From Patescibacteria group bacterium (lineage in GTDB: Bacteria; Patescibacteriota; Microgenomatia; Levybacterales; UBA12049): a DNA stretch of 64,000 bases. Below are positions 1,431-33,999 of this stretch, in pieces (the stretch's first letter is position 1; each line of letters opens with the position of its first letter). The DNA is taken from assembly GCA_035510535.1 (NCBI GenBank), contig DATKGY010000041.1, forward strand, positions 29,493-93,492. Direction: 5' to 3'. The translations under genes and the position numbers were made by a program. Below the pieces are notes generated by a model. The model did not search any database. It was not told the origin of the DNA and saw only the letters and a program-made list of their open reading frames with translations.

Positions 1431-2132
1431 ATGAAATTATCAATTGTCGTTCCGGTATTTAACGAGGAAAAGACAATACTGCAAATCTTAGAAAGACTGA
1501 AAAAAGCCGATATTTCAGTTCCTTACGAAATCATTGTGGTTGATGATGGTTCAACGGATAGTACAAGAGAAAAGTTAAAAACTGTTAGGAATGTAAAAAT
1601 TATTCTCCATAAAAATAATCAGGGCAAAGGGGCCGCGGTAAAGACGGGTATCAAAAATGCGACGGGCGATTATATTTTAATTCAAGATGCAGATTTGGAA
1701 TACAACCCAGATGAAATAAAAGGTTTGTTAAAGCCAATTCTAGAAAATAAAGCAAAGGTTGTCTATGGAACGAGATTAAACAGGGTGCCGCATCTTAAGA
1801 AGGAAGAGGCGAAACACTTATTTATTATCCACTATTTCGGGAATAGATTCTTAAGTCTTGTGACAAGCGCCCTTTACGGTCAGTGGCTAACTGATATGGA
1901 AACCTGTTATAAGTTATTTCCTAAAAAGGCTGTTTCTTCAATTAGGCTTAACGCAAGGGGATTTGAATTTGAACCGGAAGTAACAGCGAAATTATTAAAA
2001 CAAGGATATAAAATAAAAGAGGTTTCAATAACTACAAATCCTAGAGGGTATGATGAAGGCAAAAAATTGAATACTATCAGAGATGGTTCTATTGCTTTAT
2101 GGTCACTCGTAAAATACAGGTTTACAAATTAA
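1431..2132 (+). CDS. GT2 polyprenol-phosphate sugar synthase (DPM1/GtrB-like).
   Basis: N-terminal LSIVVPVFNEE...VVDDGSTDST; DAD/DxD region 'LIQDADLEY'; size typical of the Dpm1 catalytic domain. Confidence 0.85.
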   Translation: MKLSIVVPVFNEEKTILQILERLKKADISVPYEIIVVDDGSTDSTREKLKTVRNVKIILHKNNQGKGAAVKTGIKNATGDYILIQDADLEYNPDEIKGLLKPILENKAKVVYGTRLNRVPHLKKEEAKHLFIIHYFGNRFLSLVTSALYGQWLTDMETCYKLFPKKAVSSIRLNARGFEFEPEVTAKLLKQGYKIKEVSITTNPRGYDEGKKLNTIRDGSIALWSLVKYRFTN

Positions 2133-3760
2133 TTAGAAGAAACATTTATTTAATTCTGCTTTTAATAATTGGGCTGTTTTTTTTATTTCCGCTTTTTCAT
2201 CCGGGATTTTATCTGTCTCATGATGGTTTTGCTCATGTGGCAAGATACGCGGCTTATTTCAAAAGTTACATGGATGGACAATTTCCGGCCAGATGGGCGG
2301 GGGATTTAAATAGCGGTTACGGTACTCCGATTTTTATTTTTTTCTATCCCTTGCCCGGATTTATCGCTACACTTCTGCATCTGGTAGGATTTCATTTTGA
2401 AACAGTGTTCAAAATAATAATGGGCACGAGTTTTATCTTGGCTCCGATTTGTTTGTTCTGGTGGCTAAGAAGACAAGCAAGCGAAGGAATCGCCTTTGCC
2501 GCCTCGCTTATCTATATGATGCTCCCCTATAGATTTTTAGACGCGTATGTTAGGGGAGATGTGGCAGAAATAGCCAGTTTTGTTTTTATCCCGTTGGTTT
2601 TTCTATATATTGACAAAGCTTTAGAGAAAAAAAGAATAAGAGATTTGCTATTTGGCGGGATTTTTTATGCTTTGTTTATTATGACGCATAATGGAATGGC
2701 TATAATATTTTCTCTGGTTTTTCTAACCTACGGCTTAATTTTTGTCAGAAAACGAAAAGAGTTAATTTATCCTTTAGGAATTTTATTACTTGGAATTTGT
2801 CTGTCCGCTTTTTTTACGCTGCCTTTTATATTTGAAACGAAGTATACGATGGCTAAAGTTATTTTGGGTTCATTGTATACGCAAAATTTCATTACTCCTT
2901 GGAACTTATTTTATTCCCAGTGGGGTTTTAATCCTGAGGTCAACGTAAAGGGAGGACTATCTCCTCAAATAGGCATTATCTATTTTATCGCTCCTTTTGT
3001 AAGTTTAGTTTTTTTACTTATGCATAAAATTAAAGAGCAGAGAAAAACTCTTTTTTGGCTGGCGGTTTTTATTCTATCGGTTTTTGTCACAACTTCCTAT
3101 TCGAAGTTTTTATGGGATCATCTTCCATTATTAAACTTGCTTGGTTATCCTTGGAGATTTACGGCTTTGTCAGGCTTTGCCTCATGTATGTTAATTTTTT
3201 ATTGCTTCCTTTTCCTAAAGAACAATAAAATCATCATATTTCTTATTGTTTTAGTTATCTTTATTTTTTCTCTGCCGTTGGTTACCGTCAACAAATATAT
3301 TCCCAGTAAAAGTGACAGTTTTTATCTTGCTTATCCTGGTACCACTGATTATAGTTTGCGGACCGATACTATTTGGACCGCCGGAGAATTTTCAGTCCAC
3401 TCTAAAAAACAAGTTGAAATTATTGCGGGAAAAGGAACGATTTCTGACCTGACGCGGAAATCCAATCTCCACACGTTTAGCGTAAACGCTATAACTTCCA
3501 TGGGAATTCTTGATAATACGGCTTATTTCCCGGGGTGGAAAGTGACAATCGACGGAGAAAAAACTTCCATCCAATTTCAGGACATGGACCACAGAGGTTT
3601 GATGGAGTTTAATGTACCAAGCGGAAAACACAATGTGAGAGTAGAGTTTAAGGAAACCCTGATAAGACTTTTGTCAGACATTGTAAGCGTGGTATCATTA
3701 GTTTTAGTAGCTGCCGTATTGCTCTTAGGAAATAGGCTAAAAAAATATATCCGGAAATGA
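2099..3760 (+). CDS. GT-C-like polytopic membrane protein, family B paralog 1 (HDGxxH N-terminal loop, C-terminal YFPGW motif).
   Basis: 'SHDGFAHVARY...RWAGDLNSGYG' after TM1; about 12 TM helices; C-terminal 'AYFPGWKVTIDG'; paralogous to the ORFs at 14795 and 19919. Confidence 0.6.
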   Translation: MVTRKIQVYKLIRRNIYLILLLIIGLFFLFPLFHPGFYLSHDGFAHVARYAAYFKSYMDGQFPARWAGDLNSGYGTPIFIFFYPLPGFIATLLHLVGFHFETVFKIIMGTSFILAPICLFWWLRRQASEGIAFAASLIYMMLPYRFLDAYVRGDVAEIASFVFIPLVFLYIDKALEKKRIRDLLFGGIFYALFIMTHNGMAIIFSLVFLTYGLIFVRKRKELIYPLGILLLGICLSAFFTLPFIFETKYTMAKVILGSLYTQNFITPWNLFYSQWGFNPEVNVKGGLSPQIGIIYFIAPFVSLVFLLMHKIKEQRKTLFWLAVFILSVFVTTSYSKFLWDHLPLLNLLGYPWRFTALSGFASCMLIFYCFLFLKNNKIIIFLIVLVIFIFSLPLVTVNKYIPSKSDSFYLAYPGTTDYSLRTDTIWTAGEFSVHSKKQVEIIAGKGTISDLTRKSNLHTFSVNAITSMGILDNTAYFPGWKVTIDGEKTSIQFQDMDHRGLMEFNVPSGKHNVRVEFKETLIRLLSDIVSVVSLVLVAAVLLLGNRLKKYIRK

Positions 3761-5454
3761 AAAAAACATATCTTTTTTTAATTTTAATCTTTGCACTTGG
3801 TCTTTTTCTAAGATTCTATAAATTAGGAGAAGTTCCTGTAGGCCTACACACAGATGAAGCATATTTTGGCTATAATGCTTATTCAATTCTAAAGACGGGC
3901 AGAGAAATAACCGGAAATTTTTTACCTCTAAATCTAAAATCATTTTTATTCAGCCCCGCAGGATACTCGTATGCGTCAATTCCATTCATCGTCATTTTTG
4001 GCTTGAGCGCTTTTTCTACCCGTTTTGCTTCTGCGCTGTTTGGTTCTTTGACGATAATCGTGGCTTTTTTCTTGATTCGTCAACTCTTCAAGGTCTTTAA
4101 GAATAAAGAACAGATTGCTTTAGTCGCCGCTTTCTTTTTGGCAATATCTCCTTGGCATATAAACTTGTCCCGCGTTTCTACAGAAAGTGTGCTGGTGGTA
4201 TTTTTTGTGTCACTTGGTGTCCTGTTCTATCTATTTTGGGAAGAGCGTAACCGGTATTATTTTTTGGCTTTAAGTTTATTGGCTTTTGCAGTTAATATCC
4301 TTATTTATCAGGCCGCCCGTAGTTTCCTGCCTTTATTTTTGCCTTTGCTTTTTCTAGTTTTTACGAAGAGGATATTTGTAAAAAGAAATATTTTCCCCAT
4401 TGCCGGTTTTATCTTGTTAATCATTATTCCGGTACTGCTAATTCTTAAATCTCCTGATTTATCAACCAGAATCAGAACGCTTTCTATATTCCAAAATCCC
4501 CAAACGCAATTGGTGTTAAATGAGCAATTAAGGGAGGATGGGGTAATGGGTTTAAACTCATTTGAAGCAAGACTGTTTAACAATAAGCTGGTAGATTATT
4601 CGCTTACTTTTTCCTCCAATTATTTTAAGCATTTCTCCTACGATTTCTTATTCACTGATAACGGTCTGCCCGAAAGATACAGGGTGCCGGGAATGGGGAT
4701 TTTATATCTTTTTGAATTACCTTTAATTGTCTTAGGGATCTGGTACTTATTCAGGCGAAATCAAAAACTTGGACTATTTATAGTCGGGTGGATATTGCTG
4801 GCGCCCGTAGGCAGCGCTTTAACTTTTGATGATGTCCCAAACCTTCAGCGCACTCTAATCGTGTTCCCGGCGCTATCGGTTTTGACGGCGCTAGGCTTTA
4901 TCAATCTACTGAGTATTCTAAAGGTAAACATCAAGAAGGTGCTAATTTTACGCGCCATAACTATTGGTATAGTTTTAATTATTGTATGCAGTTTTTTCTA
5001 TTATCTGCAGGCTTATTACGTACATCAGATAGTTCACCGGCCGTGGTATAGGCAAGAAGGATATCAAAAATTAGTTGGGGAAATCAATAAATATGCCAGA
5101 AACTACCCAAAAGTAATTATTACCAATGCCCAAGTCAATCCGACAATTTTTCTTCTCTTTTATAATCAATACGATCCGGCTAATATTCAAAAAGTTATTC
5201 AATCAAGCCCAGGAGTGGATTATGGCAACACGTCTTTTGCCAAATACCAAATTACCGGCGAAGAGTGTCCGGTAAGGGAAGAAATTTTAACAGACAAAAA
5301 GACGGGGTTAAGCAGTGCTTTTATCACCGGAGAAAAAAGAGTTTTATATGTTGATGACGGAGTATGTAAATTGCCCAACGGTAAAGTAAGAATATTATCC
5401 CAGATTAGACGGTCGGACAATACCTTAGTTTTTCAGTTAGTTACCTTAAAATAG
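3757..5454 (+). CDS. GT39/PMT-like (ArnT-like) polyprenol-P-sugar-dependent membrane glycosyltransferase, tandem paralog 1.
   Basis: 'LRFYKLGEVPVGLHTDEAYFGYNAYSIL' (loop-1 DE motif); polytopic; C-terminal 'IFLLFYNQYDP'; ATGA overlap with the upstream gene. Confidence 0.75.
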   Translation: MKKTYLFLILIFALGLFLRFYKLGEVPVGLHTDEAYFGYNAYSILKTGREITGNFLPLNLKSFLFSPAGYSYASIPFIVIFGLSAFSTRFASALFGSLTIIVAFFLIRQLFKVFKNKEQIALVAAFFLAISPWHINLSRVSTESVLVVFFVSLGVLFYLFWEERNRYYFLALSLLAFAVNILIYQAARSFLPLFLPLLFLVFTKRIFVKRNIFPIAGFILLIIIPVLLILKSPDLSTRIRTLSIFQNPQTQLVLNEQLREDGVMGLNSFEARLFNNKLVDYSLTFSSNYFKHFSYDFLFTDNGLPERYRVPGMGILYLFELPLIVLGIWYLFRRNQKLGLFIVGWILLAPVGSALTFDDVPNLQRTLIVFPALSVLTALGFINLLSILKVNIKKVLILRAITIGIVLIIVCSFFYYLQAYYVHQIVHRPWYRQEGYQKLVGEINKYARNYPKVIITNAQVNPTIFLLFYNQYDPANIQKVIQSSPGVDYGNTSFAKYQITGEECPVREEILTDKKTGLSSAFITGEKRVLYVDDGVCKLPNGKVRILSQIRRSDNTLVFQLVTLK

Positions 5455-5460
5455 TACGTA

Positions 5461-7143
5461 ATGAAGAAATTATTGAATTGGAAATTAGCATTACTTCTGA
5501 TAATCCTGTTGGCGGTTTTTTTAAGGTTCTACCAGTTGGGAAATATTCCCGCCGGCTTTTTAAACGATGAAGCTAACGCCGGATACGATGCTTATTCAAT
5601 ACTGCTTACCGGTAAAGATCAATGGAATAACTTCCTTCCTATCAATAACTTTATTGGTTTTGGTGATTTTCAGCCTCCAGTGAATCGGTATTCACAACTG
5701 CTTCCTATCAAAATTTTCGGGTCCAATGAGTTTTCCGTTAGGTTTATGTCCGCGTTGGCCGGAGTTTTATCTGTCGCCGCTTTATATTTCCTAGTGAAGA
5801 AATTAATTAATTGGAGGGCGGCTTTTTTCTCGGCTTTGCTTCTCGCAATCATGCCATGGGCAGTTGGATTAAATCGAATAGGGCATGAATCTAATCTGGC
5901 CATTTTATTTTTGATTGCCGCGCTTTTTTTCGGCTTGGTGCCAAAATCCGGCAAAAGTTTATTGATTGCTGTCTTTTTCCTCGCATTGTCGATGTATACC
6001 TATTCCGCTTATATTCTTTACGCGCCTTTAGTTTTGGTTGTGGTTCTAGGCGTAAATTACAAAAAGGGGAAAGGATACGGGTATTTACTAAAACCTTTAA
6101 TATTGCTCTTAATTATCATTTCGCCAATTATATTTCAAAAAAATTCTGCTTCGGTCAGATTTTCTCAAGTAGGTTTAACAACTAATGTCAGTAGCGTCGG
6201 TTTAATCAATAATCTTAATGATCAAAGAGGCCAGTGTTTAGCCGCATCCAATCCTTTTATTTGTAAAATAACCGATAACAAAGCGCTTCTTTTCCCCAGC
6301 GTTTTTGTTAAAAATTACTTATCTCATTTTTCCCCTAACTTTTTATACATCAGCGGTACACCGACGCAATTTTCCATTTTGCCCCAACGGGGCTTAGATT
6401 ATCTGTTCAATTTCCTGCCGTTAATCGCGGGAATTATCTTCTTTCTAAAAAATTATAAGCAGCGTAAATTAAGCGGCGCTTTATTCATATTATTTTTACT
6501 TGCTCCAGTACCCGATTCATTTACCAGCGACGGAAACTATACGCGCTCTTCCATGATGCAGCCGTTTATAGCTTTATTCGGCGGGTTAGGGATATATTAT
6601 TGCCTGGATTTCTTAGGAAGAAAAAAATGGTTAGAATATCTATTCACCACTTTAATTTTTCTGGTTATTTCTTTTGCTCTCATTTCCTTTTTTATAATTT
6701 ATAGCACTTACTTTAAAAATAATTATTCTATATATTCCCAATACGGATACAAAGATTTGGTAAAGAAAATCTCCTCGTGCAAAAATGATTACACTAAAAT
6801 CTATATTTCCAGACACCTAAATGATGCTAAGCAATATATCTATTATCTTTTTTATACGAAATATGATCCCCGAAAATATCAAAGTAAAAAAGACGTCAGT
6901 TATAGTGTAGGAGCAGACGGATGGGTATCTGTAGATAGAGTCGAGAACATATATTTTGTGCAGAATCTGCCCACAGTTTCTACGCAATCTGCGGAAACTA
7001 ATTCTGCGGTCCTTTTTATCTCCAACCCAGTCGATTTCCCCAAATCGCTAAAGCCTGTATTTGTCGTAAAAGATAAATTAGGGAATGTAATATTTGAAGC
7101 AGTGAGATCAACGGATTTGCTAGAATATATAAATAGGGAGTAA
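5461..7143 (+). CDS. GT39/PMT-like membrane glycosyltransferase, tandem paralog 2.
   Basis: 'LRFYQLGNIPAGFLNDEANAGYDAYSIL'; C-terminal 'YIYYLFYTKYDP'. Confidence 0.75.
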   Translation: MKKLLNWKLALLLIILLAVFLRFYQLGNIPAGFLNDEANAGYDAYSILLTGKDQWNNFLPINNFIGFGDFQPPVNRYSQLLPIKIFGSNEFSVRFMSALAGVLSVAALYFLVKKLINWRAAFFSALLLAIMPWAVGLNRIGHESNLAILFLIAALFFGLVPKSGKSLLIAVFFLALSMYTYSAYILYAPLVLVVVLGVNYKKGKGYGYLLKPLILLLIIISPIIFQKNSASVRFSQVGLTTNVSSVGLINNLNDQRGQCLAASNPFICKITDNKALLFPSVFVKNYLSHFSPNFLYISGTPTQFSILPQRGLDYLFNFLPLIAGIIFFLKNYKQRKLSGALFILFLLAPVPDSFTSDGNYTRSSMMQPFIALFGGLGIYYCLDFLGRKKWLEYLFTTLIFLVISFALISFFIIYSTYFKNNYSIYSQYGYKDLVKKISSCKNDYTKIYISRHLNDAKQYIYYLFYTKYDPRKYQSKKDVSYSVGADGWVSVDRVENIYFVQNLPTVSTQSAETNSAVLFISNPVDFPKSLKPVFVVKDKLGNVIFEAVRSTDLLEYINRE

Positions 7144-7165
7144 GAAAAATTGTGACTTAAAGAAA

Positions 7166-8794
7166 ATGTTCAAATTTATTAATTACAAATTACTGTTACT
7201 TTTAGTAGTAATAATCGCGGCATTTTTAAGGTTTTATCAATTGGGAAGCAATCCGCCTTCTTTAACTTGGGATGAGGCGGCTTGGGGATACAATGCTTAT
7301 TCAATCGGTATTGACGGGAAAGACGAATTTGGCCGGCTTTTGCCCCACGATTATCTTGAGTCTTTCGGCGATTTTAAACCACCGATGTATGTGTATCTGG
7401 ATGCTATTCCGGTAAAAGCTCTAGGACTAAATGAGTTTGCCACCAGAGTTCCATCCGCTTTATTTGGAGTTTTAACAGTTTTCTTAACTTATTTTCTGGT
7501 TCAAAGAATCTTCTGGAACTCAAAAGATAAACGGAAATACGCGCTTGCGTCAGCGTTTATCTTGGCAATTTCCCCGTGGCACATTATGTTGTCACGGGCC
7601 GCCTTTGAAGCCAATGTGGCAACTTTTTTCCTCGTCTTAGGAATCTGGGGATTTCTGGCGGCAACGCAGGATAAAAAATGGTACCTTTTAATTTCCGCCG
7701 TTTCTTTTGCTCTGTCAATGTACACTTTTAACACGGCAAGAGTCGTTGCTCCGCTTTTGGTAATTATTCTAGTATTGGCATTCAGAAAAAGATTATGGCA
7801 AATAAAAAAAGAAGTATTAATTGCGTTTATCATTGGGTTAGCGGTTTTCTTGCCTACTTTCCGGTTTCTGCTTACTCCGCAAGCGGCCTTGAGATTTCAA
7901 GAGGTCAATATTTTTTCGGATCCAAGCATCGTCAAAACCGCCAATCAGGAAATTGCCAATGACCAAAACGCATTCTGGTCAAAAATAATCCACAACCGAA
8001 GAGTGTTGTATTCTCTGGATTATGTCAAACACTATTTTGATAATTTAAGTCCCAGTTTCCTTTTTATCAAAGGAGATGGTAATCCTAAATTCTCAATTCA
8101 AAGCGTCGGGCAAATGTATCTTTGGGACATTCCGTTTGTCGTCATCGGAATCTTATTCTTAATCAGGAAAAAAGAGGGGCATTGGTGGTTAGTGCCGTTG
8201 TGGCTTTTAATCGGCATAATTCCTGCCGCAACCGCCGAGCAAACGCCGCATGCTTTGAGAATTGAAGCGAGTTTGCCAACGTTTCAAATAATTAGCGCTT
8301 ACGGTTTAATTATATTTCTATCAATGGTTAAGCGTTTTAGGTACGTAGTAGCGGCTGTTTTAATTGGCTTACTGTTGATAAATCTAGCATATTTTTGTCA
8401 CGATTATTTTGCCCATTATCCATCTGAGTTTTCCGGCGAGTGGCAATATGGCTACAAACAATCAATAGATTACGTGAAATCCGTAGAGAAAAATTATGAT
8501 TACGTCCAAGTTACCAGCGAACTGGGAAGGCCTTATATCTACTATCTTTTTTACACCAAAACGTTGCCATCCGATTACCGGAAAACTGCTGTCATTCAGC
8601 GGGACGCGTTTGGGTTTGTCACGGTTACGGGTTTTGGCAAATATCGATTTCCCGTTAATTATAATTATAGTTTGAGCAAAACAAAAAAAGTGCTTTACGT
8701 TAATACGCCTTATATCTTACCCAAAAACATTAAGATCCTTAAAACATTTTATTTATTAAACGGACAACCGGTTTTGGTTGCATATACGATATGA
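7166..8794 (+). CDS. GT39/PMT-like membrane glycosyltransferase, tandem paralog 3.
   Basis: 'LRFYQLGSNPPSLTWDEAAWGYNAYSIG'; C-terminal 'YIYYLFYTKTLP'. Confidence 0.75.
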   Translation: MFKFINYKLLLLLVVIIAAFLRFYQLGSNPPSLTWDEAAWGYNAYSIGIDGKDEFGRLLPHDYLESFGDFKPPMYVYLDAIPVKALGLNEFATRVPSALFGVLTVFLTYFLVQRIFWNSKDKRKYALASAFILAISPWHIMLSRAAFEANVATFFLVLGIWGFLAATQDKKWYLLISAVSFALSMYTFNTARVVAPLLVIILVLAFRKRLWQIKKEVLIAFIIGLAVFLPTFRFLLTPQAALRFQEVNIFSDPSIVKTANQEIANDQNAFWSKIIHNRRVLYSLDYVKHYFDNLSPSFLFIKGDGNPKFSIQSVGQMYLWDIPFVVIGILFLIRKKEGHWWLVPLWLLIGIIPAATAEQTPHALRIEASLPTFQIISAYGLIIFLSMVKRFRYVVAAVLIGLLLINLAYFCHDYFAHYPSEFSGEWQYGYKQSIDYVKSVEKNYDYVQVTSELGRPYIYYLFYTKTLPSDYRKTAVIQRDAFGFVTVTGFGKYRFPVNYNYSLSKTKKVLYVNTPYILPKNIKILKTFYLLNGQPVLVAYTI

Positions 8795-11990: not shown

Positions 11991-11993
11991 TTT

Positions 11994-13295: not shown

Positions 13296-13305
13296 AATTT
13301 AACAA

Positions 13306-14805
13306 ATGAAAAAATATCTAGTTGCTTTAAACAATTTTAAGTATCGAAACCCATTATGCTTATGTATTCTTTTTGTCATCGGATTTTTGCTGAGAATTTA
13401 TTTGATTGGCCAGAATTTATTTTTCGGACCGGAGCAGGGAAGAGACATGCTGGTGGTTAAAAGTATTGTCATAGATCATAAACTCGTGCTAATCGGCCCA
13501 ACGACTGCAGTTGAAGGCATTTACCACGGTCCCTTATATTATTACCTTTCCACAATCCCCTTCTTTTTTAGCAAAGGTAATCCCCTTTTTATAGCCTTAT
13601 TTTTTATTTTCCTTAACGCTTTATCCGTATTCTTAGTGTATCTGGTCGGGAAAGAATTGTTTTCCAGAAAAATAGGGTTAATCGCGTCTTTATTTTTTAC
13701 ATTTTCTTTCGGCGCGGTGGTAATGGCGAGATGGTTGTCTCATCCTCCGCTAATTATTCCAGTCTGCTGTTTGTTTTTTCTGTTTTTAGCCAAGTTTATA
13801 AAGGGAAATAATAAATATTTAATTCCAACGGCTATTATTTATGGAGTCGCGACGCAAACGGAATTTTCCAACCTGATAATTTTTACTTTCATTACTTTTT
13901 TTGCGGTGGTTGTTTTTAGGAAAAGATTTCTTGAACAAAAAATAATCAGTTTACTTATTGCGCTTGCTTTGGTGATTTTGCTACCTATATTCAATTTTGT
14001 TCTTTTTGATTTAAGACATAACTTTTTAATTACCAGAAGTCTAATAAAATCTCAGGCGCACAGACCGCAATTTGTAGGTTATTTTTTGCATACCCTAACT
14101 GGCTCAATCTGGCAGTTTATGCAAGTTTTTTCCGATGTGGTTAGTCCGTTGCATTTGTTAGTTGCCGCGGTTATTTTTATCGCCGCCTTTTTTGCGCTGA
14201 TTAAATTAAGAGATAAATATAAAACCGGAACGGCATTGATGTTAATCTGGTTGTTTTCTCCTTTTGTCGCCTTTATTCTTCTTCGCTATAACCCTTTGTA
14301 TCATTATTTTACCGCTTCCATTATTGCAATTATCATCTTGATTGTCGTTCTTGTAGATTATCTCTCATCTCTCAAAAGAGGAGTTGGTTTAATTGCGATA
14401 GGCATATTGGTCGCGTTTAATTTATGGTCACTGCATGCTTATTTGCCTAATAATCTCAATGTATTTTTTCAATCCACTCAGCCCGATTTGAAATATAAAG
14501 ACCAGCAAGCAGTTATACAAAGAATATACAAAGAGGCTAACGGGACACCCTTTTATTATCAGGCTTATACCATTCCTTACTGGATGCAGGATGGGTGGCA
14601 ATATCTTTTCTGGTATTACGGTAAACAGTATGGATATCTTCCCAAGCAAACGAATAAGGGTTTGTTGTTTGTTATAATTCAGGATGACCCAAGCACTAAG
14701 CTTTATCAAACCAATTGGCTTAGGGACACGGTTAGCAAATGGGGAATAGAAGAGAATGAATTTAAATACGGGATATTAACCGTAGAGAAAAGATATGTTC
14801 AATAA
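13306..14805 (+). CDS. GT-C-like polytopic membrane protein, family C paralog.
   Basis: 'FGPEQGRDMLVVKSIVIDHKLVLIGPTTAVEGIYHGPLYYYL'; C-terminal 'WQYLFWYYGKQYGY'. Confidence 0.55.
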   Translation: MKKYLVALNNFKYRNPLCLCILFVIGFLLRIYLIGQNLFFGPEQGRDMLVVKSIVIDHKLVLIGPTTAVEGIYHGPLYYYLSTIPFFFSKGNPLFIALFFIFLNALSVFLVYLVGKELFSRKIGLIASLFFTFSFGAVVMARWLSHPPLIIPVCCLFFLFLAKFIKGNNKYLIPTAIIYGVATQTEFSNLIIFTFITFFAVVVFRKRFLEQKIISLLIALALVILLPIFNFVLFDLRHNFLITRSLIKSQAHRPQFVGYFLHTLTGSIWQFMQVFSDVVSPLHLLVAAVIFIAAFFALIKLRDKYKTGTALMLIWLFSPFVAFILLRYNPLYHYFTASIIAIIILIVVLVDYLSSLKRGVGLIAIGILVAFNLWSLHAYLPNNLNVFFQSTQPDLKYKDQQAVIQRIYKEANGTPFYYQAYTIPYWMQDGWQYLFWYYGKQYGYLPKQTNKGLLFVIIQDDPSTKLYQTNWLRDTVSKWGIEENEFKYGILTVEKRYVQ

Positions 14806-16450
14806 TTTTAAGAAAAAAAATAATTTACTTTTTGTCTTAGTCACGGTTTTTTTATTGCTAGTTCCGATTGTTTCCTTAGCGCATAGCGGTTTGCCGATAA
14901 CGCATGACGGACAGGACCATGTCGCAAGAATCGCCAATTTTTATCAAAATCTTTTGGAAGGTAATTTAATTCCCAGATGGGCTGCCAATCTTAACTGGGG
15001 ATACGGCCACCCGATTTTGGAATTTTTATATCCCCTGCCTTCTTATTTCGCTTCTTTCTTTCATCTGGTTGGTTTTTCTTTGGTTGACGCGACAAAAATT
15101 GTTTATGGTTTGGGGATGGTTTTGTCGTTGTCTTTTATGTTTTTATGGCTTAAGCAATTTTTGGGCAAAGAGCCGGCGCTTCTGGGAGCCTTTTTGTACA
15201 CTTATGCCCCTTATAGATTCGTTGATCTTTATGTTAGAGGAGATATCGGCGAAAATTTGGCTTTTGCTTTTGTACCCCTGATTTTATATTTTATTTTCAA
15301 GCTTTATAAAAAGCCTAAGCTAATATATTCATTGCTGGGTGCTTTGTCTTTAGCGCTTTTGATACTCTCGCATAATGCGATTGCTCTTATAACCGTACCG
15401 TTTATTTTATTTTACGCTATATACCTTATTTGGTTGTCCAAATTCAATAAATCATTAATCATTAATCTTTCATCCTTAATCATTTTCGGTTTTGCCCTGT
15501 CGGCCTTTTTCTGGGCGCCGGCATTGTTAGAGGGTAAATACACACTTCGCAATATCGTTACAAAAGGCACGTATGTAAATAGTTTTGTTAGTTTTAAAGC
15601 TTTGATTTACGGGCCATGGAGCTATGGCGGGAGCGGTGAATTTACTGTTCAATTAGGTATTATTCAATGGCTGGGTTTAATTCTGTCCCCGGTTTTGGCT
15701 ATTCTCTTTTGGTTTAAAAAAGATAAAAGATACCTACTTGTTTTAGCATGTCTTCTGTATACTTTGTTAGCGATATTTTTAATGCTACCGATATCAAATT
15801 TTCTTTGGACAAAAATAATGCTTTTGCAAAACTTCCAATTTCCATGGCGTTTTTTGGCTATTACGGTTCTTTCAACCTCAATATTGGCGGCTTTGCTAAT
15901 TTATAAACTTCCCAAGAAGTTACAGCTTGTCACGGTATTAATTTTAATCGCAGTAGTTTTGTTTATAAGTAAAGATTATCTAAAGGCCAAAGATTATTTG
16001 TATAAACCGGCAGGTTTTTATACAGGAATATATAATGGTACAACCGATACCGGTGAAAGTTCACCTATCTGGTCAGTACGGTTCATGGAGCATGCACCAA
16101 AAGCGCATTTGGAGATGCTTGACGGAAAAGCCACTATTAAGGGAATAAAAAGAACTTCTACGGATCATCTCTATACGGTTAATGTCGCAAAGAGGACTTT
16201 ATTTGAAGAAAACACCCTTTATTTCCCGGGCTGGCAGATAAAAGTCAATAACGTTCCGGTTAGCATTGAATTTCAGGACATGCAATATCGGGGAACGATG
16301 TTATTTATCTTAGATAAAGGAAATTATGTCGTCGAAGCAAAATATTCGGAGACAAAATTACGGTTAATTTGCGACTTAGTATCTTTAATCAGTTTAATAT
16401 CTCTGGCCGGATTATTTGGCTTCGGGTTTGTAAAGACAAAGCTTTCTTAG
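14795..16450 (+). CDS. GT-C-like polytopic membrane protein, family B paralog 2.
   Basis: 'LAHSGLPITHDGQDHVARI...RWAANLNWGYG'; C-terminal 'LYFPGWQIKVNN...FQDM'. Confidence 0.6.
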   Translation: MFNNFKKKNNLLFVLVTVFLLLVPIVSLAHSGLPITHDGQDHVARIANFYQNLLEGNLIPRWAANLNWGYGHPILEFLYPLPSYFASFFHLVGFSLVDATKIVYGLGMVLSLSFMFLWLKQFLGKEPALLGAFLYTYAPYRFVDLYVRGDIGENLAFAFVPLILYFIFKLYKKPKLIYSLLGALSLALLILSHNAIALITVPFILFYAIYLIWLSKFNKSLIINLSSLIIFGFALSAFFWAPALLEGKYTLRNIVTKGTYVNSFVSFKALIYGPWSYGGSGEFTVQLGIIQWLGLILSPVLAILFWFKKDKRYLLVLACLLYTLLAIFLMLPISNFLWTKIMLLQNFQFPWRFLAITVLSTSILAALLIYKLPKKLQLVTVLILIAVVLFISKDYLKAKDYLYKPAGFYTGIYNGTTDTGESSPIWSVRFMEHAPKAHLEMLDGKATIKGIKRTSTDHLYTVNVAKRTLFEENTLYFPGWQIKVNNVPVSIEFQDMQYRGTMLFILDKGNYVVEAKYSETKLRLICDLVSLISLISLAGLFGFGFVKTKLS

Positions 16451-16463
16451 TATCATATTATCT

Positions 16464-17327
16464 ATGAAACAAACACTTTCCGTAGTGCTGGCGACTTACA
16501 ATGAAGGTAAAAACTTAGCTGCATGTCTAGATAGCGTTAAAGGGTTAGCGGATGAAATAATAATCGTTGACGGAACTTCTTCGGATAATACCGTTAAGAT
16601 CGCCAAAGGTTACGGCGCGAAAGTTCTAGTCAAAGATAATCCGCAAATGTTTCACATCAATAAGCAAAAAGCTATAGATATGGCAACGGGTGATTGGATC
16701 TTGCAATTGGATGCGGACGAACGGGTTAGCCCCAAACTCACAGCAGAAATAAAAAAATTTATAAATATGAATGATGCTGAGAGAGAAGAATATCAAAAAA
16801 ATATCCCAAACCGCGAACTATTTGAACGTCATCAGAAATTAATAAAAGAAAGGGATGGTCAGGTCGGTAAGTCAAGCGGGCCATATGTGGCCTTTTTTAT
16901 GCCTAGAGCAAATTACTTCTTAGGAAGATTTCTAAAATCGGGAGGAGTATATCCAGATGGAGTTATAAGACTATTTAAAAAAGGTAAAGCTTATTTACCT
17001 TGTAAAGATGTTCATGAGCAATTAGTGGTCGACGGGAGAGTTGGCTGGATGCAAAATGATCTTCTGCATTATGATTCGCCAACATTTAAAAAGTATATTG
17101 CCAGAAACAGGAGGTATACGGCTTTTATTGCAACTCAGTATAAAGATCAAAAGTTATCTAAAGATCCGATAACTTTCATAAAGTACGTTCTTATCTTACC
17201 TATCCATTGGTTTTTGCTGACATTTTTTAGACACAAAGGGTTTAAGGACTCGTGGCAAGGGTTTGTGTTTTCACTTTTCTCCGCTTTACGATTCCCTATT
17301 TCGTATATAATATATCTAACGTTATGA
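16464..17327 (+). CDS. GT2 glycosyltransferase with a C-terminal membrane anchor.
   Basis: 'LSVVLATYNEGKNL...IIVDGTSSDNT', 'QLDADE'; hydrophobic C-terminus. Confidence 0.8.
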   Translation: MKQTLSVVLATYNEGKNLAACLDSVKGLADEIIIVDGTSSDNTVKIAKGYGAKVLVKDNPQMFHINKQKAIDMATGDWILQLDADERVSPKLTAEIKKFINMNDAEREEYQKNIPNRELFERHQKLIKERDGQVGKSSGPYVAFFMPRANYFLGRFLKSGGVYPDGVIRLFKKGKAYLPCKDVHEQLVVDGRVGWMQNDLLHYDSPTFKKYIARNRRYTAFIATQYKDQKLSKDPITFIKYVLILPIHWFLLTFFRHKGFKDSWQGFVFSLFSALRFPISYIIYLTL

Positions 17328-18289
17328 AGATTTTAGTTACAGGCGGCGCGGGATACATCGGAAGCTTCATGATAAAGCGTCTTTTGGAGCAAGGCGACGA
17401 GGTGGTAGTGGCGGATAGTTTGGAGAGAGGACATAAGGAAGTAGTTGATCAAAGGGCTAAGCTAATGGTTGGTAATTTGCTTGATAAATCTTTCGTACAG
17501 GAGGTTTTCAGGGATAGATTTCACGCGGTTATTCACTTTGCGGGATTTATTTCAATGGGTGAGTCAATGGAGAATCCTTATTTATATTTTCAAAATAACG
17601 TCTTTAGCTCTCTTAACATTTTGGAACAAATGTCGCAAACCGGTGCTAATAATTTTATATTTTCTTCATCCGCGGGCGTTTATGGAAACCCCGAACAAAT
17701 TCCCATTCCGGAAAGTAGCGTAACAGCGCCAACCAATCCATATGGAGAGAGTAAATTAATGGTCGAGAAGCTTATGGGTTGGTATGGAAAAACCAAAAAA
17801 CTTAATACCGTCGCGTTAAGATATTTTAATGCTGCCGGCGCCTCATTAGATGGCTTAATGGGAGAAGAGCACCTGCCGGAGAGCCACATCATTCCCAAGA
17901 TCATAGAAGCTTTATTGGAAAACAAACCCTTTAATCTTTTTGGCAACGATTATAAAACTAAGGATGGGACTTGCGTTAGGGATTATATACATGTTTTAGA
18001 TTTGGTGGAGGCGCATATCTTGGCGATTAATAAAATACGCACGATGCCTGGTAATTATGTCTATAACGTCGGAACCGGAGCGGGCTTTTCGAATAAGGAG
18101 ATTATAGGAATGGTAGAAAAAGTCTCTGGACAGAAAGTAAATATTCAAAACTCCCCAAGGCGTCCCGGCGACGCGGATGAATTAATTGCTGACCCAACAA
18201 AAATAAAATCAGAATTGGGTTTTAGTCCAAAGTATTCCGACCGTGAGACAATTATTAAAACCGCATGGCAATGGCACAGTAAAAAATGA
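17324..18289 (+). CDS. galE: UDP-glucose 4-epimerase (GalE-type extended SDR).
   Basis: 'MKILVTGGAGYIGSF', 'YGESKLMVE' (YxxxK), GalE-like length. Real start is the ATG at 17324 (ATGA overlap), not the ORF-track start at 17252. Confidence 0.8.
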   Translation: MKILVTGGAGYIGSFMIKRLLEQGDEVVVADSLERGHKEVVDQRAKLMVGNLLDKSFVQEVFRDRFHAVIHFAGFISMGESMENPYLYFQNNVFSSLNILEQMSQTGANNFIFSSSAGVYGNPEQIPIPESSVTAPTNPYGESKLMVEKLMGWYGKTKKLNTVALRYFNAAGASLDGLMGEEHLPESHIIPKIIEALLENKPFNLFGNDYKTKDGTCVRDYIHVLDLVEAHILAINKIRTMPGNYVYNVGTGAGFSNKEIIGMVEKVSGQKVNIQNSPRRPGDADELIADPTKIKSELGFSPKYSDRETIIKTAWQWHSKK

Positions 18290-18813
18290 TAAGAAAAGTT
18301 AAACTTTTTACCTTCCTTATATCAATTTTGTTCTTGTCTGCTCTGCCTTCTTATGCTTCATCAACATACGTCTTGCCATATCCTTCGACCATGCCGGGAA
18401 GCATTTTTTATAAAATTCATTTGGTTGAAGAAACAGTTTTAAGGTATTGGTATTTCGGCGACTTTGGGCAATTTACTTATAATCTTAAAGAATCTGATAA
18501 ATATCTCGTTGAAGCAAAAACACTTTTTGAATATAATCAATATCTGCTAGGCTACGAAGCTTTAAAAAAGTCAGACGTATATTTCAGCAAGACGCTTCCT
18601 TATCTTTTAAAGGCTCAGAAACAAGGTAAGGACATTTCGGCAAATCGGGATTTACTTTCTCAGGCTGCCTTAAAACATAAAGAGGTTTTATTGACGGTAA
18701 AGCAAGAAGTTCCGCCGGTTTTTAATTGGACTCCGGAAAAATCAGCTTTAACCGTACTTAATCTTAAAGCGGCGATAGACGCCTCAATAGCAATAAGAGA
18801 TAAATACCTATGA
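18286..18813 (+). CDS. Small secreted protein of unknown function. Signal peptide followed by an S/T/P-rich segment.
   Basis: 'MIRKVKLFTFLISILFLSALPSYA|SSTYVLPYPSTMPGS'; no TM beyond the signal peptide. Confidence 0.5.
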   Translation: MIRKVKLFTFLISILFLSALPSYASSTYVLPYPSTMPGSIFYKIHLVEETVLRYWYFGDFGQFTYNLKESDKYLVEAKTLFEYNQYLLGYEALKKSDVYFSKTLPYLLKAQKQGKDISANRDLLSQAALKHKEVLLTVKQEVPPVFNWTPEKSALTVLNLKAAIDASIAIRDKYL

Positions 18814-19946
18814 AAAAAATGTTTCTTGGAGTTTACTCAATCTTTTTAGTTTGCTTAGCTATTTTTTCCTATGCTTTTGTCGACCCCAATCTTTTATTTT
18901 TAAGAAAACTCTATACCGGTTTATATGCGACTAACCGGCCTTTTGTAACTTTGGCTTTCATTTTTTTAGTCCTTATTTTTTTTGGATTTTATACTTTATT
19001 CTTATATTGGTTTAGGCAAAAAGTTTTCGGAAATAACGAGTTTAAGTTTATCTTAATAAGCACCGTAGTTTTTCTATTTTTAGCATATCCGGCGATGGTT
19101 TCATACGATATTTTCAATTACGTCGCTACGGCAAAAGCACTGTTTTTTTATCATGAAAATCCGTACATCATTATGCCGATACAATTCTTGCACGATCCTC
19201 TACTATTGTTTATGCAGGCAGCCAATAAAACCGCGCTATACGGACCTTTTTGGATATTTTTGACCGGAATTCCATATTTGTCGGGATTTGGAAATTTCGC
19301 AGTAACTCTTTTTGCTTTTAAGCTTTTTAATACTATTTTTTATTTGGCGTCAATAGCTCTTCTCTATAAAATGTCGAAAAATATTTACTATCTTTCATTT
19401 TTCGCCTTCAACCCCCTGGTTATTTTTGAAACTTTGGTAAGTAGTCATAACGATATTGTGATGATGTTTTTTGCCATTCTTACAATTTACTTCCTAAAGA
19501 ATAAAAAACTGATATTGTCAATTATTTTAATTATTCTCTCGATATTAATTAAATATTCAACCGTATTTTTGCTCCCCGTTATTTTATACGCAATGTTTTA
19601 TCAATTAAGGAATAAAAAACTAGAGTGGGAGAAAATTTTTCTCTGGTTTTCAATTTCGATGCTTGTGATCTTTCTCTTGTCACAAATACGCGAAGAGATA
19701 TATCCCTGGTACGCGATTTGGTTTTTGATTTTCCTTCCTTTTATTCGAAATAAATTAATTAAATATATTTACTTAAGCTTTTCTTTCGGACTCTTATTTA
19801 GATATGTGCCATTTATGCTATTAGGAACTTATTTTGGTACTACTCCTCTAATCAAAAATTTTATGACTTTTATTCCGGTGGGAGTAACGATTTTATTTCT
19901 AGCTCTTAAAAAATTTATATGGCAAAAATCTTCAAACCGATTTTAA
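18810..19946 (+). CDS. Polytopic membrane protein, possibly a small GT-C/mannosyltransferase-like protein.
   Basis: About 10 hydrophobic helices; sits inside the GT-C array; no soluble catalytic motif recognised. Confidence 0.4.
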   Translation: MKKMFLGVYSIFLVCLAIFSYAFVDPNLLFLRKLYTGLYATNRPFVTLAFIFLVLIFFGFYTLFLYWFRQKVFGNNEFKFILISTVVFLFLAYPAMVSYDIFNYVATAKALFFYHENPYIIMPIQFLHDPLLLFMQAANKTALYGPFWIFLTGIPYLSGFGNFAVTLFAFKLFNTIFYLASIALLYKMSKNIYYLSFFAFNPLVIFETLVSSHNDIVMMFFAILTIYFLKNKKLILSIILIILSILIKYSTVFLLPVILYAMFYQLRNKKLEWEKIFLWFSISMLVIFLLSQIREEIYPWYAIWFLIFLPFIRNKLIKYIYLSFSFGLLFRYVPFMLLGTYFGTTPLIKNFMTFIPVGVTILFLALKKFIWQKSSNRF

Positions 19947-21565
19947 TAGTTTTAATTTTCGCATTCATTGCAGGCTTTGCGCTTTTGCATTCCGGGCTTC
20001 CTCCAACGCATGACGGGGAATACCATGTCATAAGATTTATAGAATTTGATAGGGCCTTAAGGGGCGGAAATTTATATCCGAGGTGGGCAGCCGATTTAAA
20101 TTACGGCTATGGTATTCCTTTGTTTAATTATGTCTATCCCTTACCGAATTATTTTTCTTCTTTTCTCCATTTTTTCGGAATAAGCTTTATTGACGCGTTT
20201 AAATTAAACATGTTTACCGCAATACTTTTGGCAGGTTTATTTTTCTATCTATGGACAAAGTCATTCTTTAACGAAAAGGGGGCGCTGGTGGGTTCTGTGT
20301 TCTATCTTTTTTCTCCCTATATGTTTGTCGATACTTACATAAGGGGTTCAGTCGGTGAAGTTTGGGCATTGGCACTTTTTCCGGCATTTTTGTGGGCGGT
20401 TATGGAGTTTATCTATAAGGACAAAAAGATATTCTTACCGGTTTCGGTTGTTTTTTTAGCGCTAATAATTTTTTCTCACAATATTTTAGCTTTAATGTTT
20501 TTTTCTTTTGCCTTTTTATATTCATTACTACTCGTTTATTTATCGAAAAACCCCAAAGCCAATTTTATAAAATGCTTATTTCTATTCGGGCTGGGTCTTG
20601 GTTTGTCGGCAATCTTCTGGCTTCCGGCAATTCTTGAAACAAAATACACAGTAGGTCTGCAAATATTTGATTATAAAAGCAACTTTGTTGATCTCTATCA
20701 ATTGATTGCTCCATCATGGGGATCCGGATTCTATGGAGGGGGACTAGCTAATCAAATGTCTGTTCAAATAGGAATCGCAAACCTTCTGGTGATATTCATA
20801 AGCATTGCAGTTTTTATTAATCTTTTTAGAAAAAAGGATTTCAGAGCAAAGCTTTTAGGATTTTTTCTCGCTTCATTATTTATTGTAATATTTTTGATGT
20901 TAAGGATGTCATTGCCAATATGGGAAAACTTTCCTTTGATGAATTATTTCCAGTTTCCATGGAGATTTTTAAGCCTAACAATTCTGTTTTGCTCGTTTTT
21001 GGCAGCAGGAATTTTTTCCGTAGTTAAACAAAAATTGTTCTTCATAGCAATGCTTTTTCTGCCCATCGTTCTTACTCTTGGCTACATACATCCTGCATAT
21101 TATATGGATAGGATGGATAGCTATTATGCGACAAGACCGAATTTTATTGACGGTACCAACAGTATCGGAAATTCCTTTAATACTCTTTGGTTTAATGCAA
21201 AATCAGTGAGAATTACCGCAAAAATAGAAGATAATAAAAATGTAGCTATAAATAAATCGGCTATTAAGCCCTCAAATTATAAATTTGAAATCATAGTTTC
21301 AAAACCATCAATTTTAACTTTAAATACAGCATACTTTCCCGGTTGGGAAGCGAAAATTGACGGTAAAGCAATTCTGCTTCAAAAAAATAGCGAGGGGCTT
21401 ATTGCGTTTTCCGTGCCTGAGGGAAAACATTCTCTGGAAGTTAATTTTGGCGATACTGCAATCAGATTAATTGCAACACTAATTTCGCTAATTTCGTTTG
21501 TGGCTCTAGTTACGCTATTGATAAAAACATGGTATATTAGAAACAAGCATGAAGATAGCAATTGA
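19919..21565 (+). CDS. GT-C-like polytopic membrane protein, family B paralog 3.
   Basis: 'LLHSGLPPTHDGEYHVIRF...RWAADLNYGYG'; C-terminal 'AYFPGWEAKIDG'. Confidence 0.6.
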   Translation: MAKIFKPILIVLIFAFIAGFALLHSGLPPTHDGEYHVIRFIEFDRALRGGNLYPRWAADLNYGYGIPLFNYVYPLPNYFSSFLHFFGISFIDAFKLNMFTAILLAGLFFYLWTKSFFNEKGALVGSVFYLFSPYMFVDTYIRGSVGEVWALALFPAFLWAVMEFIYKDKKIFLPVSVVFLALIIFSHNILALMFFSFAFLYSLLLVYLSKNPKANFIKCLFLFGLGLGLSAIFWLPAILETKYTVGLQIFDYKSNFVDLYQLIAPSWGSGFYGGGLANQMSVQIGIANLLVIFISIAVFINLFRKKDFRAKLLGFFLASLFIVIFLMLRMSLPIWENFPLMNYFQFPWRFLSLTILFCSFLAAGIFSVVKQKLFFIAMLFLPIVLTLGYIHPAYYMDRMDSYYATRPNFIDGTNSIGNSFNTLWFNAKSVRITAKIEDNKNVAINKSAIKPSNYKFEIIVSKPSILTLNTAYFPGWEAKIDGKAILLQKNSEGLIAFSVPEGKHSLEVNFGDTAIRLIATLISLISFVALVTLLIKTWYIRNKHEDSN

Positions 21566-23953: not shown

Positions 23954-24703
23954 ATGGGAAGAGTAAAATTTTTATCACTCATAATCCCTGCTTTTAGACA
24001 AGAAAAAACGATTGCACAAGATTTAAAAAATCTTCAGAAAGCATTGTCGGTTTTACCTCTTAAGTATGAAATTATTGTCGTCGTGGATGGAGGTGGAGAT
24101 GGCACTTTCAGAAACGCGAAGAACGTAAGAGGTAAAGAAATCGTTGTAGTAGGATACGATAGAAATATCGGTAAGGGCTTTGCGATTAAGAATGGAGTAG
24201 AAAAAGCAAAAGGAGATGTAATTGGCTTTATCGATGCAGGCATGGATTTAGACCCAACGGAAATTTCAATAATGTTAGATATTATGAGTTGGAATAAGGC
24301 AGATATAGTTATCGGAAGCAAGCTTCATCCCGAATCAAAAGTTAGTTATCCTTGCTGGAGGAAAATATTATCTTGGGGATATAGAACCCTCACTCATTTA
24401 ATGTTTGGGTTTAGCGTAAGGGATACGCAAGTTGGTCTAAAAATCTTCAAGCGAAAAGTTGCTAAAGATGTGTTTCCTCATATAATCGTAAAGAGATTTG
24501 CTTTTGACGTAGAAGTTTTAGCTGTTGCCCAGAAATTAGGTTACACGAGGATTTACGAGGCGCCTGTAAAGCTTAACTTCAACGGAGCAAATGCTATTAC
24601 TTCCACGAGTTTTTGGAAAGTAATACTCTCCATGCTTTGGGATACCGTTGCTGTGTTTTACAGATTAAAAATTCTTCACTATTATGATAGAATAAAAAAA
24701 TAA
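23954..24703 (+). CDS. GT2 glycosyltransferase (DPM1-like).
   Basis: 'LSLIIPAFRQEKTI...IIVVVDGGGDGT', 'IDAGMD'. Confidence 0.8.
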   Translation: MGRVKFLSLIIPAFRQEKTIAQDLKNLQKALSVLPLKYEIIVVVDGGGDGTFRNAKNVRGKEIVVVGYDRNIGKGFAIKNGVEKAKGDVIGFIDAGMDLDPTEISIMLDIMSWNKADIVIGSKLHPESKVSYPCWRKILSWGYRTLTHLMFGFSVRDTQVGLKIFKRKVAKDVFPHIIVKRFAFDVEVLAVAQKLGYTRIYEAPVKLNFNGANAITSTSFWKVILSMLWDTVAVFYRLKILHYYDRIKK

Positions 24704-33195: not shown

Positions 33196-33201
33196 AAGTA
33201 A

Positions 33202-33993: not shown

Positions 33994-33999
33994 TTGAAT

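Follow-up and report, generated by a model that had tools for sequence, protein, structure and literature searches.

Polytopic membrane proteins of two GT-C-type families in a probable cell-surface glycan locus of Microgenomates

The family B and family C proteins

The DNA analysed here, a stretch of 64,000 nt (the window, in whose numbering positions are given below), comes from a Patescibacteria group bacterium placed by its GTDB lineage in Microgenomatia, Levybacterales, UBA12049 (assembly GCA_035510535.1, contig DATKGY010000041.1, positions 29,493–93,492 of the forward strand). The genes between positions 33 and 31515 form a single co-directional run in which they are densely packed or overlapping, and this run is most likely one long operon and a conserved cell-surface glycan locus of the Microgenomates, which belong to the candidate phyla radiation (CPR). 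Within it are encoded two families of membrane proteins, families B and C, which the original prediction had described as two trios resembling glycosyltransferases (GTs) of the GT-C type. All six open reading frames (ORFs) lie where they had been predicted, on the + strand, and the public gene calls on the genome give equal lengths:

2099..3760, + strand: B1, 553 aa, GT-C of the PTPS_related family (PF10131, E 2.4e-13)
10455..11990, + strand: C1, 511 aa, GT-C of PMT_2 type (PF13231, E 1.3e-7)
11994..13295, + strand: C2, 433 aa, divergent shorter member of family C whose soluble domain lacks its C-terminal portion
13306..14805, + strand: C3, 499 aa, GT-C of PMT_2 type whose C-terminal alpha/beta domain (residues ~397–498) is small and strongly conserved
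14795..16450, + strand: B2, 551 aa, PTPS_related/PMT_2 GT-C (PF10131, E 4.6e-9; PF13231, E 7.7e-6)
19919..21565, + strand: B3, 548 aa, GT-C with ~11 transmembrane (TM) helices, an extracytoplasmic beta-sandwich (residues 442–510) and a C-terminal TM helix

All six proteins are polytopic, with 9–11 hydrophobic segments each. The B proteins share 32–35 % identity in pairs over ~520–540 residues (BLASTP E 6e-68 to 7e-89), B1 being 33 % identical to B2 and 32 % identical to B3 over the full length, and each matches PTPS_related (PF10131) above the gathering score (E 5e-9 to 3e-15; 35.7–56.3 bits, cut-off 26.4 bits). The N-terminal motif, H(S/P)G(L/F)..(S/T)HDG..HV.R...G(N/Q)(L/F).(P/A)RWA..LN.GYG, and the C-terminal YFPGW motif are both present in all three. 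Profile searches of the B and C alignments against PDB sequences gave nothing at E <= 1, and structure prediction was therefore chosen; the link of the two families to solved GT-Cs is one of fold comparison only. The AlphaFold2 (AF2) model of B3, built from an alignment of 36 homologues (predicted local distance difference test, pLDDT, 85.8; predicted TM-score, pTM, 0.88), shows a helical membrane core followed by the beta-sandwich and the final TM helix. In structure comparison the beta-sandwich is similar to the accessory beta-sandwiches of glycoside hydrolases, and it parallels the carbohydrate-binding C-terminal domains borne by other GT-Cs (PMC8035078, PMC11127046). This C-terminal portion of B3 also matches the C-terminus of YfhO and of PgfM1 and PgfM2. 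The match to the YfhO model (PF09586) covers profile positions 743–824 of ~835 and is absent from B1 and B2; the B proteins are thus not YfhO proteins in the full sense, and full-length examples of that family (750–804 aa) occur as separate genes in related loci.

Forty-six columns are invariant in an alignment of 36 B sequences that includes the three window paralogues, among them (B3 numbering) H31, D32, G33, H36, R39, R55, K95, D138, R142, E147, H187, E240, P347-W348-R349 and F473-P474-G475-W476. The original prediction had proposed that the His and Asp residues of the HDGxxH loop could be catalytic or metal-binding. The sequence HD[GA] is found in 116 of 131 B-type ORFs of other genomes, the exceptions comprising mis-called starts, one truncated ORF, longer YfhO-like proteins with another N-terminal motif, and a set of variants (TNDG, THDL, VHDD, TDDG, IHDN) that retain the Asp. 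The residue universally kept is thus the Asp of 'HD' and not the flanking His residues. Lys and Arg residues lie ahead of TM1, and by the positive-inside rule loop 1 is therefore expected to face outwards. Known GT-Cs carry their catalytic acid in the first outside loop after TM1, a position that Asp32 of B3 (in 'THDG') would fit as the candidate acidic residue for transfer. Family B is large: among 1.84 billion proteins its profile retrieved 22,039 cluster representatives with an E-value of 1e-3 or below, 6,348 of them with one of 1e-30 or below. Six library proteins of 1093–3329 aa (P0365, P0371, P0459, P0361, P0363 and P0364) each contain two to five separate B-family matches; either tandem B genes are really fused here or separate gene calls have been merged, and the pattern is consistent with tandem arrays elsewhere.

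Family C is less uniform. C1 and C3 are 26 % identical over their full length (E 1e-28), whereas C2 aligns with C3 over the N-terminal ~170 residues only (30 % identity, E 4e-14) and with C1 at E 7e-5. Likewise, C1 and C3 match PMT_2 (PF13231) at 32.5 and 39 bits, above the cut-off of 26.1 bits, and C2 falls below it at 19.4 bits. The shared motif attributed to the trio (GRDML ... LIGxTT ... GPxYYY) describes C1 and C3; C2, which also lacks the last ~65 residues, reads DQVDNAWA ... LVGMVAK ... GIFIGPAYYY, with 'GRDML' replaced by 'VDNAW', and this 'DNAW' variant of loop 1 recurs in its orthologues. The C3 model (AF2, 39 homologues; pLDDT 91.2, pTM 0.89) consists of a membrane core, which ends near residue 380, and the small alpha/beta domain, which is strikingly conserved. 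Glu43 and Asp47 (in 'PEQGRD') are nearly invariant in the same 39-homologue alignment, and from their position after TM1 they may be the acidic residues used in transfer.

The original prediction had set family C apart from the GT39 genes of the window, a distinction that is not clear-cut. NCBI already names C3 a 'glycosyltransferase family 39 protein', although family C does not match PMT (PF02366) at E <= 1, its loop 1 reading PEQGRD (DQVDN in C2) and not DE, and the family C proteins are not PMT members in this sense. In profile–profile alignment the 'DE' of the window's PMT-type genes (family A, below) aligns with the 'EQ' of family C, the match spanning the N-terminal ~200 columns only. 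The NCBI name probably rests on the broader similarity of PMT_2 type.

Taken together, the profile matches (PTPS_related, YfhO and PMT_2) and the membrane core and GT-C fold of the two models bear out the predicted assignment of both families to the GT-Cs. PTPS_related and PMT_2 are placed in Pfam clan CL0111 (PMC7801869) and YfhO is treated as a GT-C (PMC8035078); the B proteins, C1 and C3 match models above the gathering score, C2 joining them through its homology to C3. An identity as transporters or permeases, which would have spoken against the assignment, was rejected: there was no permease match in Pfam, no transporter fold appeared among the strong structure matches, and the Foldseek matches of the major facilitator superfamily type had a probability below 0.15 and a TM-score of ~0.1.

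The predicted total of at least 13 GT-C proteins in the 64 kb holds and is, if anything, one too low, since an MptA/B-like gene at 18810 had been missed. At least 14 are encoded: the three B and three C proteins, the four members of family A, the products of 18810, 26850 and 55934 (the last two PMT_2/PMT matches), and the C-terminal half of the product of 51665. Two entries in this tally belong to the operon and recur in the comparisons below:

3757..10458, + strand: family A, four PMT/PMT_2 ('GT39') genes at 3757, 5461, 7166 and 8791, between B1 and family C
18810..19946, + strand: GT-C like MptA/B or GT87, 378 aa, 7 TM helices, directly upstream of B3

The family A proteins match PF13231 with E 3e-11 to 5e-17, are 31–35 % identical to one another, and in one case (A3) also match PMT (PF02366). 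For 18810 there is a precomputed match to PF26314 (MptA_B_family) and an NCBIfam match to alpha-(1->6)-mannopyranosyltransferase A that is below the cut-off (E 1.3e-6).

Three further membrane proteins may be noted here. The gene at 51665–54841 (+ strand) encodes 1058 aa with ~20 TM helices and is an apparent fusion, its N-terminal half giving a weak match to Wzy_C/O-antigen ligase (E 3e-4) and its residues 616–1001 aligning with the family C profile (hhalign 90.8 %, E 1e-6, 354 columns). The product of 43265–45403 (+ strand; 712 aa) has no significant Pfam match and is built like a B or YfhO protein, a membrane bundle at the N-terminus being followed by a large outside domain, which contains the motif 'GYNPQW', and by a TM helix at the C-terminus; hhalign related it to family B with a probability of only 30 %, and unannotated genes akin to it (658–663 aa) occur in the arrays of two other loci (L084 and L085). 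At the start of the run, upstream of the GT2 gene at 1431, positions 33–1430 (+ strand) encode 465 aa with eight hydrophobic segments, a soluble C-terminal part and no family match; counterparts with 26 % identity stand at the equal position in loci L067 and L083. When aligned with the GT-C profiles by hhalign, this ORF gave no meaningful match and ORF 45363 gave nothing.

Gene order in relatives, GT2 partners and neighbouring genes

The genes that accompany the GT-Cs in the operon, and that are needed for comparison with other genomes, include the following:

1431..2132, + strand: GT2, 233 aa, no TM helix, located upstream of B1; similar to dolichol-phosphate mannose synthase (DPMS) and a candidate synthase of polyprenyl-phosphate sugars
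16464..17327, + strand: GT2, 287 aa, weak C-terminal hydrophobic segments (236–254 and 267–285), conserved partner of B2
18286..18813, + strand: small conserved protein, 175 aa, one N-terminal TM or signal segment, weak DUF5667 match, between the epimerase gene and 18810
22592..23914, + strand: candidate flippase of Wzx type, 440 aa with 13 hydrophobic segments (Polysacc_synt, E 1.9e-12; Polysacc_synt_3, E 3.3e-10)
23954..24703, + strand: GT2, 249 aa, no TM helix, belonging to the conserved core; DPMS/PpgS-like and a candidate synthase of polyprenyl-phosphate sugars

A search for relatives with one genome per species gave 536 encoded relatives. The best 79 loci, which belong to Levy-, Gottesman-, Roizman- and Woesebacteria and to metagenome-assembled genomes (MAGs) bearing placeholder names, were used for counts of gene order. 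For these counts all ORFs in the 79 loci were classified against the window genes, and a gene type was scored as present by best match. The original prediction had asked whether such trios recur beside GT39-type arrays in other CPR genomes, and a collinear core does recur in most of the loci. Its order is A3 (24 of 79), A4 (46), C1 (30) or C2 (12), B2 (54), GT2 16464 (64), the epimerase (41), 18286 (60), 18810 (63), B3 (67), the GT4 at 21549 (57), a GT2 resembling 1431, Wzx 22592 (48), GT2 23954 (46), the GT4 at 25740 (42) and the PMT_2 gene at 26850 (15), of which C1 or C2, the 1431-like GT2 and 26850 are the genes not always present. Many MAG records with a locus of the Microgenomates type (e.g. 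L006, L012 and L014) are titled 'uncultured Gammaproteobacteria bacterium', names which look like placeholders or mislabelling.

The two trios are not a local expansion; they are ancient paralogues, each with orthologues of its own. The closest orthologues of B3, C3 and B1 (78, 87 and 78 % identity) far exceed the ~33 % shared by the B paralogues within the genome, the named relatives being Levybacteria and other Patescibacteria. Orthologues of B1 range from 78 to 41 % identity, those of B2, which are followed by an orthologue of 16464, from 41 to 67 %, and those of C2 from 35 to 57 %; A1 and A2 have almost no orthologues in the 79 loci. Neighbour joining of 143 B proteins separates three groups, with 17 members of B1 type, 54 of B2 type and 72 of B3 type. 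In two other Levybacteria loci the B1 orthologues lie directly upstream of a PMT/PMT_2 array, as in the window, and further upstream are full-length YfhO genes, GT2 genes and another MptA/B-like gene. In the 41 loci that are 19 kb or longer, A, B and C genes number 1–6 per ~21 kb (median 5, maximum 6), and the window has 6 around B3. The density of GT-C genes is thus a trait of the clade and not peculiar to the genome studied. Recent local expansion was rejected on these grounds, every B paralogue having a deep clade of its own and a conserved position, and the density being near the clade median. The arrangement is not entirely rigid. In four loci (L050, L051, L061 and L062) and others of the Gottesmanbacteria type, a C3-like gene stands between the orthologues of 18810 and B3, and in Gottesmanbacteria-type loci the 1431-like GT2 follows the GT4. 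The core is otherwise fixed, and these differing positions show that the accessory GT-C and GT2 genes have changed place inside it.

Adjacency of GT-A and GT-C genes is a signature of known systems (PMC8035078). At the present locus, the DPMS-like GT2 1431 precedes B1, the two genes overlapping by 34 nt; B2 is followed after 13 nt by GT2 16464, which is not specifically GtrB-like; and B3 is followed by a GT4. The original prediction had counted four DPM1/GtrB-like synthases, and for three of them the comparison with solved structures agrees. The best relative of 1431 is the dolichol-phosphate mannose synthase of P. furiosus (5mlz; E 2e-17 over the entire catalytic domain), ahead of ArnC and GtrB, that of 23954 is the same enzyme (residues 7–207, E 1.3e-11), followed by GtrB, and 46536, which has two C-terminal TM helices, is matched over its full length by ArnC (E 4e-38) and GtrB. 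NCBIfam scores of the GT2s are all below the equivalog cut-offs, the models concerned being AglJ, PpgS and dolichol-phosphate hexose transferase for 1431, and PpgS, over the full length, with some similarity to AglJ, for 23954. The fourth, 16464, is a generic GT2, in which the GT2 models match the N-terminal ~100 aa only. Candidate polyprenyl-phosphate sugar synthases of GT-A type (1431, 23954 and 46536) are thus encoded together with the GT-Cs, as in multi-component systems, and we infer that the B and C proteins use polyprenyl-phosphate sugar donors supplied by these neighbouring DPMS/ArnC-like genes.

Besides the GT2 and GT-C genes, the cluster contains GT4s, an MBOAT gene and many genes for nucleotide-sugar enzymes, epimerases and dehydratases; 22592 is the sole flippase candidate in the window. 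The small protein 18286 may have an accessory role of the kind played by GacJ. Downstream of the operon, positions 31529–43233 (both strands) hold a dense block of sugar-nucleotide modification genes, encoding a GDP-mannose 4,6-dehydratase, a C-methyltransferase with a Zn-binding domain, an FkbM methyltransferase, a dTDP-4-dehydrorhamnose 3,5-epimerase, a UDP-glucose/GDP-mannose dehydrogenase, a nucleotidyl transferase and a split transketolase pair (40944 and 41702), which suggests the formation of unusual methylated or branched deoxy-sugars. More distally, non-glycan genes have been inserted at 47471–49057 and 54956–55584 (+ strand). The first of these segments begins with a 190-aa ORF (47471) corresponding to the N-terminal half of a GT4, possibly a truncated gene, followed by a Fic/DOC protein with a DeoR-type helix–turn–helix (HTH) domain (48080); the second is a pair of Gp49-like (HigB-type) and HTH_3 genes resembling a toxin–antitoxin module.

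Possible products of the locus

On balance, we favour the explanation that the B and C proteins are extracytoplasmic GT-C transferases which act one after another to assemble or decorate a glycopolymer or lipoglycan of the cell surface, and which are encoded in a conserved surface glycan locus of the Microgenomates. Our current working model is that cytoplasmic GT2s (1431, 23954, elsewhere in the window 46536, and possibly 16464) would load monosaccharides from nucleotide sugars, diversified by the epimerases and dehydratases of the cluster, onto polyprenyl phosphate, and that a flippase, for which 22592 is the candidate, would flip the sugar-loaded lipids to the outer side of the membrane. 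There each GT-C (B1–B3, C1–C3, the four family A proteins, 18810 and 26850) would pass its sugar to an acceptor outside the membrane by means of the acidic residue in loop 1, presumably Asp32 in B3 and Glu43 or Asp47 in C3. Because the paralogues are old, fixed in position and have kept their conserved charged residues, they are likely to perform different, non-redundant steps, distinct in linkage, sugar or acceptor position. A glycopolymer or lipoglycan as acceptor is favoured by the surrounding genes (the Wzx-like protein, the GT4s, 51665, MBOAT and the sugar-nucleotide enzymes).

Several observations weigh against this explanation. Neither a small (4-TM) flippase of GtrA type nor an initiating phosphoglycosyltransferase was found in the 64-kb window, and no extracytoplasmic acceptor could be identified from the window sequence. 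The most conserved partner of B2, 16464, has GmaR and SunS as its best solved relatives and reaches DPMS at E 4.5e-4 only. Enzymes of the YfhO and PMT types can glycosylate proteins instead of polymers (PMC12041528), so that it is gene context alone that decides here for a glycopolymer. PF10131 (PTPS_related) was encountered in the literature only as a table entry, with the remark 'function unknown' (PMC7801869).

The principal alternative, less probable in our judgement yet deserving serious attention, is protein O-glycosylation, in which a GT2, a flippase and a GT-C would act in turn to modify Ser or Thr residues of secreted or membrane-anchored proteins (pilins, an S-layer, or Ser/Thr-rich disordered tails) in the manner of actinobacterial PMT or of streptococcal PgfS/PgfM1 and GtrB/PgtC2. 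GmaR and SunS, the nearest solved relatives of 16464, are glycosyltransferases whose acceptors are proteins or peptides. In family A there are matches to both PMT (PF02366) and PMT_2, and in family C to PMT_2; the C-terminus of B3 matches PgfM1 and PgfM2, which are YfhO-type GT-Cs, and the YfhO-type PgtC2 and PgfM1 are known to glycosylate Ser/Thr-rich regions (PMC12041528). CPR cells, moreover, bear pili and a periodic surface layer (PMC7906910). However, the PgfM and PMT matches are all partial or below curated cut-offs, and no Ser/Thr-rich candidate acceptor is encoded among the unannotated ORFs of the window, the highest content of Ser plus Thr (40 %) occurring in one 30-aa stretch of the 43265 product. 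The neighbouring genes, too, are those of a polysaccharide cluster (Wzx, GT4s, the weak Wzy_C-like match, MBOAT and sugar-nucleotide enzymes), and at least 10 distinct GT-Cs are more than any known pathway of this kind employs.

Another explanation, which we regard as unlikely, is that the GT-Cs are largely interchangeable glycosylases of side chains, gained and lost for phage evasion or host recognition as in the gtr clusters of Salmonella and Shigella, with no obligatory stepwise pathway. Such turnover would agree with the variation among loci in the copy number of A- and C-type genes (within the range of 1–6 A, B and C genes per ~21 kb), with the scarcity of positional orthologues of A1, A2 and C3 in the 79 loci, with the different placement of C3-like and 1431-like genes in the Gottesmanbacteria-type loci, and with the mobile-type genes (Fic, the Gp49/HTH pair and the truncated GT4) of the distal island. 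Yet B2, B3, 18810, 18286 and 16464 are collinear in 54–67 of the 79 loci, across several candidate phyla, and the paralogues are 32–35 % identical, each with a deep clade of its own; such low identity and deep clades argue for long-term retention of distinct functions and not for rapid turnover. It is also conceivable, if very improbable, that these proteins have the GT-C fold but have lost catalysis and serve as scaffolds, recyclers of lipid carrier or transporters. PIG-U and GAB1, which are non-catalytic proteins with this fold, are among the structure matches, and C2 is truncated, below the Pfam threshold and altered in its GRD motif. Against this, the loop-1 acids and many charged residues are invariant in the B paralogues and nearly so in family C, and the strong structure matches and the Pfam searches, as described above, point away from transporters and permeases.

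Relation to known systems and significance

Multi-component transmembrane glycosylation is established in Firmicutes, where it includes CsbB/GtcA/YfhO, GtlA/GtlB and GacI-J-K-L (PMC8035078); Pgf and GtrB/PgtC2 are protein-glycosylation systems (PMC12041528). The locus described here resembles those of Firmicutes in that a GT2 of the GT-A type adjoins a GT-C (1431 with B1, B2 with 16464) and in that the GT-Cs are of YfhO/PTPS_related or PMT_2 type; the cluster also has a candidate flippase of Wzx type, as with GacK, and an epimerase, as with PgfE. It differs in that the B proteins are compact (~550 against 750–950 aa), their match to the YfhO model being confined to the final ~80 positions, that at least 10 GT-Cs are present in one operon where each Firmicutes system has one, that the window encodes no recognizable GtrA-type flippase, that 16464 is not CsbB/GtrB-like by sequence, and that for the CPR host no acceptor polymer of the type of lipoteichoic or wall teichoic acid is known.

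The Corynebacterineae offer a second comparison. There, PimE, MptA/B/C, EmbA/B/C and AftA-D build lipomannan (LM), lipoarabinomannan (LAM) and arabinogalactan from decaprenyl-phosphate sugars. At the present locus, similarly, many distinct GT-Cs would each add a specific residue at the outer face, and the MptA/B-like 18810 belongs to the conserved core. In contrast to the Corynebacterineae, the genes lie in one collinear operon, no genes of the phosphatidylinositol or decaprenylphosphoryl arabinose (DPA) pathways were seen, and identity to the corynebacterial enzymes in structural alignment is only 9–15 %. Compared with PMT (GT39) and ArnT (GT83), family C has the PMT_2 match, the GT39 name given by NCBI and an acidic motif in loop 1 in common; unlike PMT, it has no PF02366 match, carries 'EQGRD' in place of the 'DE' of family A and PMT, and possesses a highly conserved ~100-aa C-terminal alpha/beta domain of its own. 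Three-component systems of the GT136 type make pentofuranose side chains (PMC11127046), and the present locus is like them, by description, in its predicted combination of a synthase of lipid-linked monosaccharide, a flippase, a GT-C with a C-terminal carbohydrate-binding module and auxiliary epimerases; the polyprenyl-phosphoribose synthase and MATE flippase of those systems were not seen here.

The B and C proteins therefore belong to known enzyme families and are already so labelled in public annotation, and for this reason the finding is solid but not surprising. What sets the locus apart from the known GT-A/flippase/GT-C systems is the number of GT-Cs in one operon, the compact architecture of family B, the GT2 partner 16464 and the CPR host. 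No published account of such GT-C arrays in CPR, Patescibacteria or Microgenomates was found in the literature searched, although one may exist outside it. The analysis provides a first genomic context for PF10131 and gives concrete targets for experiment, namely the three orthologous B sub-types, the invariant Asp and the conserved GT2 partners.

CPR bacteria have very small genomes, and their surface is the site of attachment to the host; to our knowledge, almost nothing is known of its chemistry. That at least 14 GT-C genes should be found in 64 kb, with a core kept across candidate phyla, points to an elaborate surface glycoconjugate under strong selection. It is interesting to speculate further, though we do so tentatively and with a good deal of doubt, that the Microgenomates build a major undescribed envelope glycopolymer or lipoglycan almost entirely at the outer face of the membrane, by a phylum-wide collinear line of 5–14 GT-Cs fed with polyprenyl-phosphate sugars. 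Such a line would include the compact ~550-aa 'HDG-motif' family, a PTPS_related or mini-YfhO family that falls into three ancient sub-types, as well as a PMT_2 sub-family distinguished by a conserved C-terminal domain of its own. If so, it would be the CPR counterpart of the mycobacterial synthesis of LM, LAM and arabinan, and possibly central to the episymbiotic cell surface.

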